DNA of 8,580 bases from a virus. Its lineage: Duplodnaviria; Heunggongvirae; Uroviricota; Caudoviricetes. Positions 440 to 8,580 of the stretch are shown one piece after another. Numbering within the stretch: the stretch's first letter is position 1; each line of letters starts with the position of its first letter. Both the position numbers and the translations under genes were made by a program. Below the pieces are notes generated by a model. It saw nothing but the letters and a program-made list of their open reading frames with translations, searched no databases and was not told the DNA's origin. The stretch lies in IMG/VR virus record IMGVR_UViG_2547132270_000009. The stretch is one strand, 5' to 3'.

Positions 440-2245
440 TTAATTTTTTCCATCGTCATTTGTGACCGATGCACATGATGGCATCCAGTCTTCTGAATCC
501 TCTGTAAGGGTCACATTTGAACGCAAACCGTGCTTCGTTTTCCGTTTCATATACTCCCTGCCATATTCCGCCATTGCCCCCGGCATATCTTTACCGAAGC
601 GCGTCAGTGTTACAGGTTTACCGAATCCGTGTGCCCTCATATATGCCAGATAGGCGTGATAAAGATACCTGCGCGGACTGAACGGAATAATTTCGGCATT
701 ACCCACTAACAGACCATCACACATTACCGACGACATGAGATAGCCGCAGAAGTCCACCAGCGAATCGCCCTCGCGTTTTATCACCAGTGCTTCTTCTGAT
801 TTCTGCTGCTCATACAGCAGGCGTTTAGCTTCGTCCTGGTCAGAAAAACGAGTAAGCAGGTGGCGAATCACAACCGCCAGCTCTCCTTCTATTTTTTCTG
901 CCAGCATGGGGTCGCGTTCGTTTTCCGGTACAACCTCCGAAAAATTGAATATCACCCGACGACGTGAGATCCCCCCGCTGCGGTCACTGAATGACATGGC
1001 GTTATTGTTCACCGCCAGCACGACCGCCTGAATGCGTGTTGAGTAGGGGGCTTTATGCTTCGGGTCGATTGCCACCTTGTCACCGCCTGTAATGGCCTTA
1101 ATTCCTGCGCCATCACCAGCGTAGCGGGTCATATCCGGCATGATAATCAGCGAAAATCCAACCACTAACGCGCGTTCCCTGGCATCTTCCAGCGCCTTCA
1201 TGCTTGCCGATACCGTGTTGGCCTTACCCGCCAGCATGGTGCAAATCTCCGCCATTACGCTTTTACCGCTTCCACCCGGCCCCGTTACCTCAAGAAATAA
1301 CTGCCAGTCGTATCGGTTCGCCAGCACCATGAATAACGCCGCCAGTACGCGATCCGCTTTACGGTCATTCTCAGCCACCGAACGGCGCAACCATTTCCAG
1401 AAATTCGGCGCATGCGTTGCCAGCGTTTCCCCCTCTGCTGGCGGGCTGAACGGTAATTCACTGGCAATTAACAGCCAGTCGTTTTTGTCATGCTCCCGAA
1501 AATCGCCTGTCCGGGTATCAAAAACACCGTTACTGAATCCAATCAGGTTACGGGCGGTATTCCCCATTACGGGCAAACTTAACTTCATTGTATCGACCGC
1601 CGATTTGATGGCGTTCTGCGAATAACTGATCTCCGCATCAATAAAAATCTGCGCCATAGCCCGCTGTAACTCTTTATCCTGTACCGGCTCCCATACAACG
1701 CCGTTGTAGTGGTGAACGGTGTCAGAGTCCGCATTGATTGCCAGTTCACCGCCATAACGTGCCAGGAGAACTTCGCCGCGCTGGCTTGCTCCCATCTGGT
1801 TAAGCGCCAGTGGTGCGGCGCTGTCTTCTGTTTTTTTCTTAACAGGAAGCTGAATAACCAGACCATCAGAAAGATTCTGGCGCTCACGCTCCAGATATTC
1901 GTGCCAGTTCTCCCGCTTCTGGCTGTGCATTCCCTCAGGGTAATAATTCGCATCCCGTACACCTGCCACCGCCAGCTTTTGCCCGATGGCATTAATATTT
2001 GACGGCTTGATGTGGCCTGCCTTGTACAGCCGGACACAATAGCGACCATCGTCGATAATTTTCAGGCCTGCCAGTTCGTCAAGCTGGCTGTCTCCCAGCC
2101 ATACAGGCGGAACATTGTCGCCAGCAAGTCGCCCGTCCTGCTCCTGCCATTGTTTCGCGTGCGCCCAGGCATCACTACCCGCAAAAATAATGACTTCGGT
2201 CATTTTGTCGTGCGGCTGTTTTTTCAGATTCGGTGCCAGTTTCAT
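440..2245 (-). CDS. replication protein, SF3-family helicase / primase-like (P4 alpha-like or PICI Pri-Rep-like), 601 aa
   Basis: 601-aa ORF with AGGGG Shine-Dalgarno 6 nt before the ATG at 2245. Walker A VTGPGGSGKS, Walker B-like SLIIMPDM, SF3 motif C VVLAVNNN and an arginine finger region SRRRVIFNF are all visible in the translation. Adjacent iteron array fits an initiator and its origin. Confidence 0.85.
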   Translation of the reverse strand: MKLAPNLKKQPHDKMTEVIIFAGSDAWAHAKQWQEQDGRLAGDNVPPVWLGDSQLDELAGLKIIDDGRYCVRLYKAGHIKPSNINAIGQKLAVAGVRDANYYPEGMHSQKRENWHEYLERERQNLSDGLVIQLPVKKKTEDSAAPLALNQMGASQRGEVLLARYGGELAINADSDTVHHYNGVVWEPVQDKELQRAMAQIFIDAEISYSQNAIKSAVDTMKLSLPVMGNTARNLIGFSNGVFDTRTGDFREHDKNDWLLIASELPFSPPAEGETLATHAPNFWKWLRRSVAENDRKADRVLAALFMVLANRYDWQLFLEVTGPGGSGKSVMAEICTMLAGKANTVSASMKALEDARERALVVGFSLIIMPDMTRYAGDGAGIKAITGGDKVAIDPKHKAPYSTRIQAVVLAVNNNAMSFSDRSGGISRRRVIFNFSEVVPENERDPMLAEKIEGELAVVIRHLLTRFSDQDEAKRLLYEQQKSEEALVIKREGDSLVDFCGYLMSSVMCDGLLVGNAEIIPFSPRRYLYHAYLAYMRAHGFGKPVTLTRFGKDMPGAMAEYGREYMKRKTKHGLRSNVTLTEDSEDWMPSCASVTNDDGKN

Positions 2246-2541
2246 TTTTTGCCCCTGAATGCGTTAATCATGCTTTTCATTTTCTGAATATTTGCCCGTG
2301 CCTTTGCGTTGCTGGTGGGCTGTTTGCGTGGTGTGGCCTGTATCAGTGAAAAATCACGCCGGAACTGATAAACAGGCATCACGCAGTCGTAGCCGTACCC
2401 ATCACGGCGGTAAGTAACGCACCGTCCGGCAATACTTTTAATCGTTACCGTGCCACCGTAGTTATCCCGGAAAATATCGCCGGGGCGGATTTCAGGCCGA
2501 GCGGGGCCGCTGGCAGTAAAGCCAGAATTTTTCTTTTTCAT
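2242..2541 (-). CDS. hypothetical small protein (99 aa), translationally coupled to the helicase gene
   Basis: ATG at 2541; its stop overlaps the helicase start as ATGA (2242-2245). Basic C-terminus. Fourth of five small genes in the operon. No family recognised. Confidence 0.55.
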   Translation of the reverse strand: MKKKNSGFTASGPARPEIRPGDIFRDNYGGTVTIKSIAGRCVTYRRDGYGYDCVMPVYQFRRDFSLIQATPRKQPTSNAKARANIQKMKSMINAFRGKK

Positions 2542-2972: not shown

Positions 2973-3205
2973 AACCCCCCCCCATTTTCACAATCAGCAA
3001 TCAGGATAGCCCTGGCCTCATTCAGTGCCATATCAGCGGTAAGCTGTGCGTAAGCCAGCGAATGCGGGATTATCGCCCCTGTATATTCCGTCTCTCTGGT
3101 AATGTGTTTTTCTGCGGTTGCTGCCGTGCATGAAATATCAATCAGCGCGTGCATCAGCGTTTTGATGGCTTCGGCGGCTGCGCCCGGACGGGTGTTATTG
3201 CACAT
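2945..3205 (-). CDS. hypothetical small protein (86 aa as read); reads through the G9 tract and stops shortly after
   Basis: ATG at 3205 with AGGGGGTG Shine-Dalgarno; overlaps the Icd-like stop by 8 nt (ATGTGCAATAA). Ends CENGGGLCVMIVLIP. The first ATG of the raw ORF (3247) is rejected because it overlaps the Icd-like gene. Confidence 0.45.
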   Translation of the reverse strand: MCNNTRPGAAAEAIKTLMHALIDISCTAATAEKHITRETEYTGAIIPHSLAYAQLTADMALNEARAILIADCENGGGLCVMIVLIP

Positions 3206-3395
3206 GATGCACCCCCTGACGAATACGGGCGGCGAATACAGCGACACAACCGGACGGGCAACGGTTACGCGCTTCGCGTTCTGTCCAGGCGGTCACGTGG
3301 ATAATTTGAGAATCTCCGGCACTCAGTGCCAGAAAACGCCACACAAAGGCGGTTTGTGTGTGCGCTAGTCGTGGGGTATGCTGTCTTACAGCCAT
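3195..3395 (-). CDS. Icd-like small protein (P4 kil/icd-type host cell division inhibitor family), 66 aa
   Basis: ATG at 3395 with GAGGTAA Shine-Dalgarno 5 nt upstream. Translation MAVRQHTPRLAHTQTAFVWRFLALSAGDSQIIHVTAWTEREARNRCPSGCVAVFAARIRQGVHHVQ fits the F-W-R-F ... EREAR ... AARI pattern I recall for Icd-like proteins of P4-like elements. First gene of the minus-strand operon. Confidence 0.6.
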   Translation of the reverse strand: MAVRQHTPRLAHTQTAFVWRFLALSAGDSQIIHVTAWTEREARNRCPSGCVAVFAARIRQGVHHVQ

Positions 3396-3496
3396 AATCG
3401 TTACCTCATTTAACGGTTTGGTTAGAAGCCCCGTTACTGCTCCAACAGTGCGGGGCTTCGTCGTTTCAATTGCTGAATTGCATGTATCAGCCCTTG

Positions 3497-3550
3497 TGGT
3501 ATTCAGATTACATTTTGGTGAATACCAGTTCAAGTCTTTTTTGGTATTCA
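3497..3550. promoter_or_regulatory. divergent promoter/operator region: three TGGTATTCA sites and a candidate sigma70 promoter for the minus-strand operon
   Basis: TGGTATTCA at 3497-3505 (direct), 3519-3527 (inverted) and 3542-3550 (direct); the first two form an inverted repeat with a 13-bp spacer. On the minus strand, -35 TTGAAC (plus 3528-3533), 17-bp spacer, -10 TAATCT (plus 3505-3510) overlap these sites. Confidence 0.4.
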
Positions 3551-3594
3551 CTTTTGTATTACACTGCATCCCGTTATTAATCGGAGGTGCAAAC

Positions 3595-3900
3595 ATGTCC
3601 ACGAGTTCTGTTAACAATAAGTCACAGCAACTGAATGCCAGATTTCCACATGAAGTAGTGAGTGGCATTGAGGCATCCCTACAGCCTGGGGAAACTAAAG
3701 CGAATTTTATAGTTACGGCTGTACGCGGTGAAATCGCCCGCCGCCAAGCAGAAGGAAGAGGAGAAAATCCCCTGGTTTCTTCGCTCGATGCACTGGCGCA
3801 GGTGGAAAAAATCGGTGTCAAAGCAGCCGAGGAGATCGGGCAACTCGTCACCGTCGCGCGTGAAGAACTCCAGCGCCGCAAGGCCAAAGAACAGGAGTAG
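3595..3900 (+). CDS. ribbon-helix-helix DNA-binding protein, YlcI/YnfO (DUF3950)-like; candidate regulator of the element
   Basis: ATG at 3595 with GGAGGTG Shine-Dalgarno; 101 aa. N-terminal LNARFPHEVVSGIEASL...KANFIVTAVRGEIARR fits the RFP...NF...RR pattern of YlcI/YnfO-type proteins; charged helical C-terminus. It is the only + strand gene inside the element, divergent from the operon. Confidence 0.7.
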   Translation: MSTSSVNNKSQQLNARFPHEVVSGIEASLQPGETKANFIVTAVRGEIARRQAEGRGENPLVSSLDALAQVEKIGVKAAEEIGQLVTVAREELQRRKAKEQE

Positions 3901-4394
3901 TTGATCAGCACCGGGCGCCCAGAAAAAATCGTATCAGTCGCGCCACCAGCAAAATTTTTTGCTTTCCGGACAGCGTGGCCAACGACATTTTGCAGCAAAA
4001 TATTCTGCATTTCTGGCGTGCTGTAGTAACGGTGATCAGCGCCTTCACATTGAACGAACTTGTCGCTAAAATTCACCCATATAGCAAACATCGCGGTGCT
4101 GTAGGTAATTCGTTCACAAAGGCGCTCCGGCAACGGGGCGCTTTTTGTTTTTATTAGTTTGTAGAAACCTGACTCAGAGATAATGCTCATATTCTGATTG
4201 CCGTCAGGGGTGTAAGTTAAATTTACTCCCTTTTTATCATCAAACATCTGCAACGCTCTGGCGTTAACAATATTGGTTTCACTCCCGCCAGTAAGGCCGG
4301 AAATAACCGGAATAATTTCGGCAAAATTTTGCAGATTCTGTTTTTCAGGACGAACGAAGCCCCGCCCTTGTTCGGGAGAATATCCAGTATTCAT
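3900..4394 (-). CDS. Bro-N-like (antirepressor-type) protein; 3' end unresolved, possibly a pseudogene
   Basis: ATG at 4394. The first 120 or so residues contain Bro-N-like blocks (FDDKKGV...NMSIISESGFYKLIKTKSAPLPERL). The frame has no stop until 3195, running antisense through the RHH gene and into the Icd-like gene, so the real C-terminus cannot be set from sequence; 3900 is an approximate boundary. Both other minus frames hit stops near 3903-3930. Confidence 0.35.
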
Positions 4395-4446: not shown

Positions 4447-4635
4447 TTAGTGAACTGCCTCGCAGCTTTCCTTCCATGCCAGAACTTCGGATAAAGACCA
4501 GCCAACGGAACGACCGCCGAGCTTACGCCGTGATGGGAATTGTCCGGTTTTTTCCAGGCGGTACCGACATGAACGGCTCAGGCCTGTAAGTTGCTGACAT
4601 TCTTTTTCACGTATAAAGCGATCTGTGCTTAACAC
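4447..4635 (-). CDS. alpA: AlpA-family phage regulatory protein (excisionase/activator-like), 62 aa
   Basis: GTG at 4635 preceded by an AGGGGGA Shine-Dalgarno. Translation ...ECQQLTGLSRSCRYRLEKTGQFPSRRKLGGRSVGWSLSEVLAWKE fits the AlpA helix-turn-helix pattern. Upstream in-frame ATGs (up to 4803) lack a ribosome-binding site. Confidence 0.8.
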   Translation of the reverse strand: MLSTDRFIREKECQQLTGLSRSCRYRLEKTGQFPSRRKLGGRSVGWSLSEVLAWKESCEAVH

Positions 4636-5002: not shown

Positions 5003-6250
5003 TTATATTTCTCTGGCTATTGGCAGTGTGGTTACGTTTTTGTGAGTACCCGCCAGTATCTCTAACCGCTCTGTCCACATGTCCAGCGCATTACGTTTCG
5101 CATCGAGATAACGGGAGTGGTTATAGACTCGCTGCATCCCTGGCATCTGGTGAGCGGTGAGTTGTTCGACAATATGCGGATCCACGCCTAAATCGTTCAG
5201 CATCGTGGTAAACGTGCGCCGTATATCGTGTAGTGACCAGTGCGGATGGTTTAATTTTTTGTGCATGAATCTGCCGTATTGCGACACACTGGCTTCCTGT
5301 TTCAGTTCCCCGAGTAATAGCCCTGTGTGTCTGTTCTGCTCCACCAGCTGCGTGACGAACGGTAAAATGCTTTCCGGTATTGGCCTGAATATGGCGACCT
5401 TCGTTTTGCTGTGCTCTTTCGGTACTGTCCAGAGCATTTCCTTAAAATCCCACTCCCTGATCTCCGATAATCTCAGTTCTCCGGTTCGGCAGCCGAACAC
5501 AATCAGGAGGCGGATTAGTGCGCTGTAGTAGGGCGGGAATATTTTTTTATCCAGCGCCTGTAATAATTCGCCAAGTTCTTTGTTGCTCAGCACGCGTTCG
5601 CTTATGCCTGGTTTTTTGCCAACGTCCACCACGTTAAGATCATCCAGAACGTTACTGACTGCGTAGCGACGTTTACGGCAGAACTTAAGCGCCTGTTTAC
5701 ACGCCTGCATCATGTGACCAGACGTTACAGGGGATTTTTTGCGTATCCGGTCAAAACAGGCCAGCCAGTGACGTAACTCGCATTTATCCAGTGGCATATT
5801 GCCAATATGCTGTATGACGTGATTATTCAGGCGGCTTTTCAGGCATACGTAATCGACACGGTTTTCCTTTACGTGCATTTCCAGCCAGTAGCTGATCGCA
5901 TCACCCACCGTTACCGGCTTTAGTGCTTCCTGTATGGAGTAATTAAGCTCATGGCGTGGATTTTTTCCTTCTGCCAGCCATGCGCGACACTGTGCCGCTT
6001 TTTCCCTGGCTGCTTTCAGGCTCAGATCAGGATAATTTCCCAGCTTCAGGCGTTCCGGTGATACCTGGCGTCCAGCTCCTGCCCTGTAGGTGAAATACCA
6101 GGTTAACAAGCCGCTGGTGGAATGCCTGACGCTCAGGTTTCCACCGTCATTAAGAAATGTGGTTTTTGGGGCTGGTGTGCCGTTGATTTTTCTTAGCTGT
6201 GTATCGCTCAGTTTGTTAAGTGCTCTGCTCATAATTTTGAATCCGGTCAT
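5003..6250 (-). CDS. int: tyrosine-type site-specific integrase, P4-like family
   Basis: About 415 aa. N-terminal arm-binding domain (DGGNLSVRHSTSGLLTWYFTYRAG...LGNYPDLSLKAAREKA) resembles P4-type integrases; C-terminal catalytic motifs HDIRRTF and YNHSRYLDAKR (tyrosine nucleophile). Start is ATG at 6250 or GTG at 6253; no strong Shine-Dalgarno for either. Confidence 0.93.
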   Translation of the reverse strand: MTGFKIMSRALNKLSDTQLRKINGTPAPKTTFLNDGGNLSVRHSTSGLLTWYFTYRAGAGRQVSPERLKLGNYPDLSLKAAREKAAQCRAWLAEGKNPRHELNYSIQEALKPVTVGDAISYWLEMHVKENRVDYVCLKSRLNNHVIQHIGNMPLDKCELRHWLACFDRIRKKSPVTSGHMMQACKQALKFCRKRRYAVSNVLDDLNVVDVGKKPGISERVLSNKELGELLQALDKKIFPPYYSALIRLLIVFGCRTGELRLSEIREWDFKEMLWTVPKEHSKTKVAIFRPIPESILPFVTQLVEQNRHTGLLLGELKQEASVSQYGRFMHKKLNHPHWSLHDIRRTFTTMLNDLGVDPHIVEQLTAHQMPGMQRVYNHSRYLDAKRNALDMWTERLEILAGTHKNVTTLPIAREI

Positions 6251-6254
6251 CACA

Positions 6255-6397: not shown

Positions 6398-6577
6398 TTA
6401 TAAAAATCCGCTATTGATAATGGCGCTGCGTACGCGATCACGCGCTTCCTTTACTGTCGTTTCTGGTAAGCCCACCATTGTTAATCCGGGTAGACCTTTG
6501 CTGATATGTACCTCAACAGTGATCGGCGGAGCATTTACTCCCAGAGCTGCGCGAGTATGAACAATTGATAGTGACAT
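6398..6577 (-). pseudogene. yifB: yifB/comM (Mg-chelatase-like AAA+ ATPase) 5' fragment, truncated after about 59 codons by the inserted element
   Basis: ATG at 6577 with GGAGGA Shine-Dalgarno. Translation MSLSIVHTRAALGVNAPPITVEVHISKGLPGLTMVGLPETTVKEARDRVRSAIINSG matches the YifB/ComM N-terminus from memory, then ends FL-stop at 6398-6400 where the full-length protein (about 500 aa) should continue. The junction is estimated at about 6400-6412. Confidence 0.8.
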
Positions 6578-6849
6578 AAGTCCTCCTTGAGTCACCATTA
6601 TGAACACAATCATTCGCTGCTGTAGCCAGCAAAATTACGACTTTTAGCGGCTGATTCCTGTTTATTTTTGCAATCGATATTGAGTTGTATTGGTGATGGA
6701 ATGATGCTCGCAAAAATGTTGCGGACAAATATTGAGCTGTTTTGTGGAGAACAAGAAACATACGGAAATTGAATTTTTTTCACTCTTCTTTTTTTATATA
6801 AAAAACAATGATCTCTATCGAAATTATTATGTGCATCATAAAAATCGGC

Positions 6850-6895
6850 CAAAAAATATCTTGTGTTATTCGCAAAATCTATGGTACCTCTTTAG
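6850..6895 (+). promoter_or_regulatory. ilvL-ilvG operon promoter region
   Basis: Candidate -35 TTGTGT (6861-6866) and -10-like TATGGT (6880-6885) 40-70 bp upstream of ilvL, but the spacing between them is only about 13 bp, so exact element assignment is uncertain. AT-rich upstream sequence (6760-6850) fits UP/IHF-type elements. Confidence 0.4.
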
Positions 6896-6929
6896 ACATT
6901 CCTTCGAACAAGATGCAAGAAAAGACAAA

Positions 6930-7028
6930 ATGACAGCCCTTCTACGAGTGATTAGCCTGGTCGTGATTAGCGTGGTGGTGATTATTATCCCACCGTGCGG
7001 GGCTGCACTTGGACGAGGAAAGGCTTAG
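6930..7028 (+). CDS. ilvL: ilvGMEDA operon leader peptide (32 aa)
   Basis: Translation MTALLRVISLVVISVVVIIIPPCGAALGRGKA, rich in Ile/Val/Leu control codons, recognised as the ilvL leader peptide; TAG stop at 7026-7028. Confidence 0.95.
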   Translation: MTALLRVISLVVISVVVIIIPPCGAALGRGKA

Positions 7029-7050
7029 AGATCAAGCCTTAACGAACTAA

Positions 7051-7085
7051 GACCCCCGCACCGAAAGGTCCGGGGGTTTTTTTTG
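7051..7085 (+). terminator. ilv attenuator, rho-independent terminator
   Basis: GC-rich stem ACCCCCG (7052-7058) pairing with CGGGGGT (7071-7077) around a GAAA loop, followed by a T-run (7077-7084), between ilvL and ilvX/ilvG. Confidence 0.9.
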
Positions 7086-7114
7086 ACCTTAAAAACATAA
7101 CCGAGGAGCAGGCA

Positions 7115-7165
7115 ATGAATAACAGCACAAAATTCTGTTTCTCAAGATTCAGGACGGGGAACTAA
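7115..7165 (+). CDS. ilvX: small protein IlvX (16 aa)
   Basis: ATG at 7115 after GAGGAGCAGG; translation [16 protein letters not shown] then TAA, matching the 16-aa IlvX small protein as I recall it; ends 2 nt before ilvG. Confidence 0.8.
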
Positions 7166-7167
7166 CT

Positions 7168-8580
7168 ATGAATGGCGCACAGTGGGTGGTACATGCGTTG
7201 CGGGCACAGGATGTGAACACCGTTTTCGGTTATCCGGGAGGCGCAATTATGCCGGTTTACGATGCATTGTATGACGGCGGCGTGGAACACTTGCTGTGCC
7301 GACATGAGCAGGGCGCGGCAATGGCGGCAATTGGCTATGCCCGTGCTACCGGCAAAACCGGCGTATGTATCGCCACGTCTGGTCCGGGTGCAACCAACCT
7401 GATAACCGGGCTTGCGGACGCGCTGTTAGATTCCATCCCTGTCGTTGCCATCACCGGTCAGGTGTCCGCACCGTTCATCGGCACCGACGCATTTCAGGAA
7501 GTGGATGTCCTGGGATTGTCATTAGCCTGTACCAAACACAGCTTCCTGGTACAGTCGCTGGAAGAGTTGCCACGCATCATGGCTGAAGCATTCGACGTTG
7601 CCCGCTCAGGCCGTCCTGGTCCGGTTCTGGTCGATATCCCAAAAGATATCCAGTTAGCCATCGGCGATCTGGAACCGTGGTTCACCACCGTTGAAAACGA
7701 AGTAACTTTTCCACATGCCGAAGTCGAGCAAGCGCGCCAGATGCTGGCAAAAGCGCAAAAACCGATGCTGTATGTTGGCGGCGGCGTAGGTATGGCACAG
7801 GCAGTTCCGGCTTTGCGTGAATTTCTCGCTGCCACAAAAATGCCTGCCACCTGCACGCTGAAAGGGCTGGGCGCAGTTGAAGCGGATTATCCGTACTATC
7901 TGGGGATGCTTGGGATGCACGGCACCAAAGCGGCGAACTTTGCGGTGCAGGAATGTGACCTGCTGATCGCTGTGGGCGCACGTTTTGATGACCGGGTAAC
8001 CGGCAAACTAAACACCTTCGCACCGCATGCCAGCGTTATCCATATGGATATCGACCCGGCAGAAATGAACAAGCTGCGTCAGGCGCATGTGGCATTACTG
8101 GGTGATTTAAATGCTCTGTTACCGGCATTACAGCAGCCGTTAAATATCAATGACTGGCAGCAGCACTGCGCGCAGCTGTGTAGTGAACATGCCTGGCGTT
8201 ACGACCATCCCGGAGACGCTATCTATGCGCCGTTGTTGTTAAAACAACTGTCGGATCGTAAACCTGCGGATTGCGTTGTGACCACAGATGTGGGGCAGCA
8301 CCAGATGTGGGCCGCGCAGCACATCGCCCACACTCGCCCGGAAAATTTCATCACTTCAAGCGGCTTAGGCACTATGGGTTTTGGTTTACCGGCGGCGGTT
8401 GGCGCACAAGTCGCACGACCGAACGATACCGTCGTTTGTATCTCTGGTGACGGCTCTTTCATGATGAATGTGCAAGAGCTGGGCACCGTAAAACGCAAGC
8501 AGTTACCGTTGAAAATCGTCTTACTCGATAACCAACGGTTAGGGATGGTTCGACAATGGCAGCAACTGTTTTTCCTGGAA
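7168..8580 (+). CDS. ilvG: acetolactate synthase II (AHAS II) large subunit, N-terminal 471 codons; continues past the window
   Basis: Translation [81 protein letters not shown]... is a thiamine-diphosphate enzyme recognised as IlvG. Frame is open from 7168 to the window end with no internal stop. Confidence 0.96.

Follow-up and report, generated by a model that had tools for sequence, protein, structure and literature searches.

A candidate ribbon-helix-helix repressor with matching operators in the regulatory region of an Escherichia coli PICI

Genes and features of the island

The window, by which we mean the whole 8,580-nucleotide (nt) stretch analyzed here, is E. coli chromosomal DNA with a phage satellite, a phage-inducible chromosomal island (PICI), inserted in the 5' part of comM/yifB, beside ilvL. 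The integration site is marked by the comM/yifB N-terminus, which is cut off at 6398-6613 on the minus strand. The ilv leader is marked by the ilvL leader peptide (6930-7028) and an Rfam match to Rev39_5p_UTR (6858-7148, 156 bits). The minus strand carries an integrase, alpA, a Bro-N/Ant remnant, an Icd-like gene, three small ORFs, DUF4222, and a primase:

5003-6253, minus strand: integrase
4447-4635, minus strand: alpA (Pfam Phage_AlpA, 63.8 bits), upstream of a long ORF on the same strand
3195-3395, minus strand: Icd-like gene (NF033153, 66 bits), first gene of the predicted repressed operon
2242-2541, minus strand: DUF4222
440-2245, minus strand: D5-type primase
204-432: iterons, downstream of the primase gene

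The approximately ten iterons (GGTGAACAG/CTGTTCACC) occur in both orientations and probably form the replication origin of the island. In the annotation of a related locus (L001), the alpA counterpart is a 62-aa HTH regulator. The regulatory region is near-identical in annotated E. coli genomes, where the plus-strand gene is named "YlcI/YnfO family protein" and its neighbor "host cell division inhibitor Icd-like protein."

The plus-strand gene and its protein

Between the primase and the integrase there is a single plus-strand gene, here called the RHH gene, for ribbon-helix-helix. It is accompanied by a ribosome binding site and a dedicated terminator:

3583-3587, plus strand: Shine-Dalgarno sequence GGAGG of the RHH gene, read from the sequence
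3595-3900, plus strand: RHH gene of the YlcI/YnfO family, 101 aa (ATG at 3595, stop codon at 3898-3900)
4118-4145, plus strand: strong intrinsic terminator of the RHH transcript (stem and TTTTTGTTTTTATT), kept in L001, L014, and L015

A purine-rich, Shine-Dalgarno-like stretch (GGAG, GAGG, or GGGG) is found at the equivalent place in most related loci. The terminator sits within the long minus-strand ORF described below. Downstream of the RHH gene and on the same strand, a small basic ORF (MQDNTMTDKELTKTL...RKRRRRK...) is present in L014 (3859-4032) and in EcCICFT073 (L025, 30243-30416), and L015 has a small ORF at the equivalent position (3591-3770). In the window, the small basic ORF is deleted.

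The 101-aa protein matched NCBIfam NF041551 (YlcI_YnfO_N) with 60.3 bits over residues 9-50 (curated cut-off, 30 bits), which bears out an earlier note on this DNA in describing a YlcI/YnfO-like gene that diverges from the operon. By sequence alone, assignment to the RHH proteins is weak. Pfam PSK_trans_fac (RHH clan) scored 15.9 bits, below its cut-off of 28.3, and this weak match recurred in 21 of 30 family members (best E = 0.0015). Alignment with Arc by hhalign gave E = 0.0017 and a probability of 15%, with QLNARFPHEV in register with QFNLRWPREV. Profile searches of PDB sequences returned no informative match for the RHH domain.

A structural model of the N-terminal domain was more informative, as its fold matches were almost exclusively RHH proteins. 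The model consists of an extended segment (residues 12-18) and two helices (19-28 and 35-54) with pLDDT >90; this is the N-terminal strand followed by two helices of the RHH (MetJ/Arc) fold. The full-length AF2 monomer (pLDDT 76) contains helices 19-28, 35-54, and 59-100, and its fold matches were to coiled coils alone, via the last helix. In a profile search, residues 45-86 also resembled the helix-hairpin-helix domain of Hef (1x2i, E = 0.005; motif L..VE.IG.KAAEEI). AF2 modeled these residues as one continuous helix, not as a helix-hairpin-helix, and the match was too weak to be relied on.

Members of the family (~101 aa; 98-111 aa across genera) are spread over Enterobacterales and formed 122 clusters in a first search and 753 when the N-terminal profile was used. 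The database search with this profile returned just close family members, none with Pfam labels, and tblastn of the RHH protein against 50,697 phage records gave no match. In the family alignment, residues 51-95 are conserved, and residues 11-15, the predicted DNA-reading strand, vary between the invariant S10 and R16-x-P18. The protein is laid out as an RHH domain (residues ~10-54) followed by a long conserved helix (59-100). It is a probable RHH repressor, and the last helix may serve oligomerization in an architecture like that of P22 Mnt.

Candidate operators and promoters

The 9-mer TGGTATTCA occurs exactly three times in the window, always upstream of the RHH gene and within 54 bp. When the 199-nt stretch was shuffled, a triple 9-mer arose by chance in 32 of 20,000 shuffles. 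The following elements were assigned:

3497-3505, plus strand: O1, candidate half-site TGGTATTCA; abuts the P(-) -10 and covers the predicted start site
3519-3527, minus strand: O2, candidate half-site TGGTATTCA; in the 17-nt spacer of P(-), beside the -35
3542-3550, plus strand: O3, candidate half-site TGGTATTCA; in the P(+) spacer
3565-3573, minus strand: O4, degenerate half-site TGCATCCCG with 6/9 matches, assigned by position; relatives have a full fourth site there
3505-3533, minus strand: P(-), promoter for icd/kil to primase; -35 TTGAAC (3533-3528), 17-nt spacer, -10 TAATCT (3510-3505)
3557-3562, plus strand: P(+), -10 TATTAC of the RHH gene, between O3 and O4, assigned from conservation alone

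The region is mirror-symmetric about 3534/3535, with the -35 positions of the two promoters adjoining (3528-3533 and 3534-3539). Each spacer holds one site, O2 in that of P(-) and O3 in that of P(+), and each -10 is bracketed by an inverted pair, O1/O2 and O3/O4. The centers of O1 and O2 are 22 bp apart, and the two sites form a 31-bp palindrome centered on the P(-) -10. O4, proposed from its position, is a weak candidate; its degeneracy would predict tight control of the operon and looser autoregulation.

Neither promoter was found by the sequence scan. P(-) was missed because its -10 matches the consensus at just 3/6 positions; overall, its match is moderate (4/6 and 3/6). The arrangement TTGAC-17-TAAnnT is nevertheless kept across 18 loci, for example, as TTGACG-17-TAATAT in L005. 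P(+) has a poor sequence at the -35 position (3534-3539), with no recognizable -35, and relatives have TATAAT, TATACT, or TATATT at the -10 offset. A possible plus-strand promoter of an antisense RNA inside icd (TTGTGT-17-TATGCT, 3354-3382) was rejected, being a weak match with a -35 that is not conserved.

The three sites, an inverted pair plus one direct copy, were thus exactly as the earlier note had reported them. Their overlap with a minus-strand -35/-10 was also confirmed, with O2 in the P(-) spacer and O1 on the -10, and this geometry is kept in relatives. The region that had been called intergenic lies inside the long minus-strand ORF at 3195-4394.

Half-sites co-vary with the N-terminal strand of the protein

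We compared 22 loci from approximately ten genera (E. coli, Yersinia, Enterobacter, Klebsiella, Pantoea, Erwinia, Serratia-like metagenome contigs, Photorhabdus, Xenorhabdus, and others). Most loci contain three to five copies of a 9-bp half-site, and a few contain two. In most of the 22 loci, the half-sites are kept together with both promoters, at offsets of approximately -98 (+), -76 (-), -53 (+), and -31 (-) from the ATG. They are identical within a locus and differ between classes defined by the beta strand (residues 10-18):

SQQLNARFP: half-site TGAATACCA; window, Yersinia
SQLTTVRVP: half-site TGAAACACA; E. coli, Photorhabdus, Xenorhabdus
S(K/R)QISIRIP: half-site TGAATCACA; E. coli, Klebsiella
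SQMTTLRVP: half-site TGAGATACA; L019
SQSLTARIP: half-site TCTTACACC; L002
xKNx types: (A)CACACC-type half-site; L003, L004, L016, L011
SQALKARVP: half-site GTGGCCCAC; EcCICFT073

The matrix of motifs by loci is block-diagonal with beta-strand class, and identical pairs of strand and half-site recur in distant genera. Variation at residues 11-15 tracks the half-site sequence over more than 10 classes.

The mosaic structure of the islands allowed us to ask which gene the operator type follows. It follows the RHH N-terminus and not the type of AlpA, Int, Icd, or primase. In L018, L019, L016, and EcCICFT073, AlpA is 90-97% identical to that of the window, yet the half-sites are unrelated. In L014, AlpA is 60% and the integrase 40% identical and the primase is of the DUF927 type, yet the operators are identical to those of the window; the same operators are found in L015, where Icd is 49% identical. 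AlpA, Int, Icd, and the primase were thereby ruled out as readers of the repeats. Co-inheritance of adjacent DNA could account for a single site; it does not account for three to five separate sites that share their sequence in concert. As a caveat, this DNA also encodes a peptide on its opposite strand, which for that reason tracks the operators equally well. The comparative evidence speaks well for an RHH repressor with operators over the operon promoter, and it gives indirect support to the idea that, in a dimer, the paired beta strands would read the major groove and set the specificity. The earlier note had proposed an RHH repressor with operators over the operon promoter; the fold model and the co-variation with the RHH N-terminus, not with AlpA, speak for it, whereas the sequence matches to RHH family models stayed below threshold.

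L014 is inserted in a prophage terminase large-subunit gene (6996-7817) and is a helper-embedded PICI with the same RHH and operator class as the window. Helper-embedded PICIs of this kind have been described (PMC10111431).

A long minus-strand ORF runs through the module into icd/kil

The minus strand of the regulatory region contains an open frame and a structured leader:

3195-4394, minus strand: long Eta-like ORF of 399 codons; passes in antisense across the RHH CDS, operators, and leader and continues in frame into icd/kil
3425-3459, with 3460-3470 adjoining, minus strand: leader hairpin (GAAGCCCCG/CGGGGCTTC) between P(-) and the icd/kil start, followed on the minus strand by the almost invariant UCUAACCA

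The frame of the long ORF is free of stop codons in 21 of the 22 RHH CDSs, in which the other two frames have 2-9 stops. In 17 of the 22 loci, it is also stop-free over the 200 nt preceding the RHH ATG, where the other frames average ~5. Open frames of 305-695 codons are present in 19 loci, usually fused in frame with the Icd-like gene. These comparisons indicate that the 399-codon ORF is not a chance product. Its first ATG overlaps the stop codon of the upstream minus-strand gene (ATGA) in L020, L021, and L023; lies 5 nt from the Ant stop codon in L015; and is ~50 nt past the alpA stop codon in the window, L001, and EcCICFT073. Gene callers split the long ORF or call proteins of 400-500 aa (L022 and L023).

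At its N-terminus, the long ORF consists of what is left, in chimeric form, of a gene of the Bro-N/AntA-AntB antirepressor type, which is intact in L014, L015, L020, and L021. In this remnant (4150-4394, minus strand), residues 1-49 share 76% identity with the AntA/AntB-type antirepressor of L015, and the ~59 aa that follow share 63% identity with the Bro-N protein of L014; past the terminator, the sequence is non-homologous. The antisense part of the long ORF matched no protein family.

The C-terminus links the region to phage P4. The C-terminal part of P4 eta/kil matched NF033153 (73 bits) and phrog_1743, as does the Icd-like protein of the window. BLASTP of the Icd-like protein against the P4 ORF gave no alignment, and the homology is visible only through profiles. 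In P4, the long ORF (8168-8812) comes after vis, and Kil is its C-terminal part. By these profile matches, the Icd-like protein is a homologue of P4 Kil.

The GCCC/GGGC core of the leader hairpin is kept in 14-17 of 17 sequences; of its four pairs, two never vary, and co-variation is seen in the inner stem. Read on the plus strand, the hairpin is terminator-like, with a T-rich run after it. No Rfam family matched the hairpin. The Shine-Dalgarno sequence of icd/kil lies in the loop of a small hairpin, GUUA-AAUGAGG-UAAC (3400-3412, minus strand); L005 forms the corresponding stem from other bases (AUGUAA/UUACAU), a hint that the structure is conserved. In an Rfam search of the window (E ≤ 1), neither C4, isrK, nor any other family matched within 3396-3600, except for a chance match to RsaJ. 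C4 and isrK did match P4 and L016 (1780-1965, inside an Ash-family first ORF downstream of the RHH module). Since L016 has both the RHH module and P4-type C4/isrK, protein and RNA immunity elements can coexist.

The module in EcCICFT073 and in E. coli genomes

The module is also present in the studied prototype EcCICFT073, between alpA and an Icd-like gene. Its YlcI-like protein (L025, 30474-30653; NF041551, 67.4 bits) has 59 aa. In this form, residues ~51-93 are lost in frame, so that the RHH domain is joined directly to the RRKAKEQE tail without the C-terminal helix. It is accompanied by two clear GGTGTGGCCCAC sites, which are near-palindromic direct repeats. The 505-nt query of the regulatory region matched 400 of 5,426 complete E. 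coli genomes. Among these 400, 57 carry the operator class of the window over at least 80% of the query, and the others mainly match the conserved C-terminal half. The co-occurrence of AlpA and an RHH protein, which the earlier note had singled out as worth examining, is no oddity of this island but the usual arrangement in a large family of enterobacterial PICIs, the prototype among them.

Our search of the literature for a role of the YlcI/YnfO-type gene in PICIs yielded no paper that describes one. AlpA is required for the induction of Gram-negative PICIs and is sufficient if overexpressed, and its overexpression alone induces EcCICFT073 (PMC6092414). The helper phage raises alpA transcription, whereupon AlpA activates its own gene and turns on the downstream genes (PMC6092414). 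In the same study, whether a global repressor exists in Gram-negative PICIs was called unclear and the contrast with Gram-positive islands a mystery (PMC6092414).

Relation to known systems

In the immI region of P22, the repressors Mnt and Arc act at Pant/Pmnt, where the operator lies over divergent promoters. The module studied here shares with Mnt/Arc an N-terminal RHH domain followed by a C-terminal helical oligomerization region (predicted here), an operator that overlaps the promoters of the divergent operon and of the repressor gene itself, and the Arc-like motif R-(F/W)-P-x-E-V. No homology at the sequence level is detectable beyond the fold. The module differs in having four half-sites 22-23 bp apart instead of one compact operator, in controlling an operon that begins with icd/kil and replication genes, and in having the antirepressor-type gene on the alpA side and not under the repressed promoter.

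The second likeness is to the P4 immunity region (PLL, vis, and eta/kil, with internal PLE), which also has an alpA/vis homologue upstream. In both cases, the early promoter lies within a long ORF coupled to vis/alpA, and this ORF includes the Kil homologue in frame (PMC10111431). In P4, eta contains the early promoter as well as the CI RNA, and translation of eta lets transcripts from the late promoter read through (PMC10111431). P4 immunity relies on the CI RNA (Rfam C4/isrK), for which no match was found in the window, and the long ORF described here contains, in antisense, the gene of a candidate protein repressor; no RHH homologue was found in P4. The RHH module resembles a protein-based immunity lock that has been grafted onto an eta/kil region of the P4 type.

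Stl is an HTH-type repressor, whereas the protein described here has the RHH fold. The SaPI Stl and Gram-positive PICI Rpr systems resemble the module in that the regulator diverges from the replication and packaging operon, with operators between them (Stl layout, PMC6092414), and is an obvious candidate for keeping the island quiescent. They differ in three further respects: int, which in those systems lies on the repressor side and is read in the same direction, is here, like alpA, on the minus strand, opposite to the RHH gene; induction has been shown to proceed via AlpA transcription and not via a helper protein that binds the repressor (PMC6092414); and the gene is nested in an antisense ORF. 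The earlier comparison with Stl/Str therefore holds for the divergent regulator and the operators in between, but the P4 immunity region combined with a P22 Mnt-like repressor is the closer match. The RHH repressors Omega (pSM19035) and CopG are more distant, being regulators of plasmid copy number, partition, or toxin-antitoxin systems; they recognize contiguous heptads, unlike the 9-mers two helical turns apart found here.

A proposed model of repression and bypass

From what the sequence shows directly, namely the gene and its sites, how the promoters are arranged, the co-variation, and the long ORF, we infer binding, repression, bypass, and an antirepressor role as follows. We consider it fairly probable that the protein is an immunity-type RHH repressor of a PLE-like promoter and that it is bypassed by AlpA-driven read-through. 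RHH dimers would bind the 9-bp half-sites, probably as two dimers joined through the conserved C-terminal helix. Occupancy of O1/O2 would block P(-) and silence icd/kil, DUF4222, and the primase gene in the integrated state. The O3/O4 palindrome is centered on the -10 of the RHH gene, and its occupancy would limit synthesis of the repressor. Pairs of beta strand and half-site of different islands would act like immunity types.

Induction would not need removal of the repressor. The helper-dependent alpA transcript would go on into the coupled long ORF, and ribosomes would be carried past the plus-strand terminator (4118-4145), the antisense RHH gene, the operators, and the leader hairpin to icd/kil and the primase gene. 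Immunity in P4 is circumvented in this way by PLL transcripts and the translation of eta. Convergent transcription and antisense pairing would be expected to cut repressor synthesis, and the repressor could, in addition, be a target of the Ant/Bro protein in relatives that have it intact. Because AlpA is necessary and its overexpression sufficient, the RHH protein is more likely a lock on the PLE-like promoter than a helper-sensing master switch, and because overexpression of AlpA alone induces EcCICFT073, any repression must be bypassable or weak. The designation "master switch" in the earlier note is thus apt in pointing to a repressor, but the comparison with Stl has to be tempered because AlpA remains the trigger.

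Several observations count against the repressor reading: O4 is degenerate, P(+) lacks a -35, P(-) is of moderate quality, the EcCICFT073 protein is the 59-aa form, and the 22-23 bp half-site spacing is wider than in Arc/Mnt operators. The interruption of the long ORF in L003, L004, and L019 also counts against the proposal.

The protein could repress via these sites and yet have no life-cycle role, merely silencing the toxic Icd/Kil as an antitoxin-like safeguard or addiction module. This is unlikely, as the same promoter drives DUF4222 and the primase gene too, RHH antitoxins are normally co-transcribed with the toxin and not divergent from it, and more than 10 specificity classes fit immunity types better than a simple safeguard.

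We regard it as very unlikely that the plus-strand ORF is not expressed as a protein and is a shadow of the long minus-strand ORF, with the repeats acting in the long mRNA or being bound by the long protein. Third codon positions are common to the two frames, so that conservation is not assignable to one strand, and since the protein is Tyr-free, the chance of an open antisense frame within the CDS is 0.07-0.8 per locus. Nevertheless, the N-terminal domain matches a curated family named after K-12 prophage genes elsewhere, and its model folds with high confidence as RHH. Across genera, the Shine-Dalgarno sequence, the ATG, and the -10 persist and the protein stays at 98-111 aa, and the gene is followed by a dedicated plus-strand terminator. 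It is the antisense part of the long ORF that matches no protein family.

The lambdoid ylcI and ynfO genes, which adjoin terminase genes on the K-12 map, have no assigned function in the K-12 prophages. AlpA is the only regulator shown experimentally (PMC6092414), but the idea that it, a replication protein, or a host protein binds the repeats while the YlcI-like protein has another, for example, packaging-related, job is scarcely credible, since unrelated half-sites accompany near-identical AlpA proteins, identical ones accompany divergent AlpA, Int, primase, and Icd proteins, and the RHH N-terminus alone tracks the sites.

The reading of the module as a bypassable RHH repressor can be extended to Gram-negative PICIs in general, and this we put forward as a tentative proposal that may well not hold. 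These islands would have a master or immunity repressor of the RHH family, whose interchangeable DNA-reading strands and matching operators define heteroimmune classes. The gene would be nested antisense in an ORF whose AlpA-driven coupled read-through overrides it, and convergent transcription would shut off repressor synthesis and create a one-way switch.

Implications for PICI biology

Gram-negative PICIs have been reported to lack a repressor, and the module is a testable candidate for it; because the operators, promoters, and predicted specificity residues can be named, the question is directly testable. Through the module, the regulatory region of PICIs is linked to the P4 immunity region. 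The module also represents an unusual nested antisense gene pair, which standard annotation splits or misses. Finally, the operator class of an island might indicate which others it excludes or cross-regulates, a point of relevance to engineered PICI vectors.
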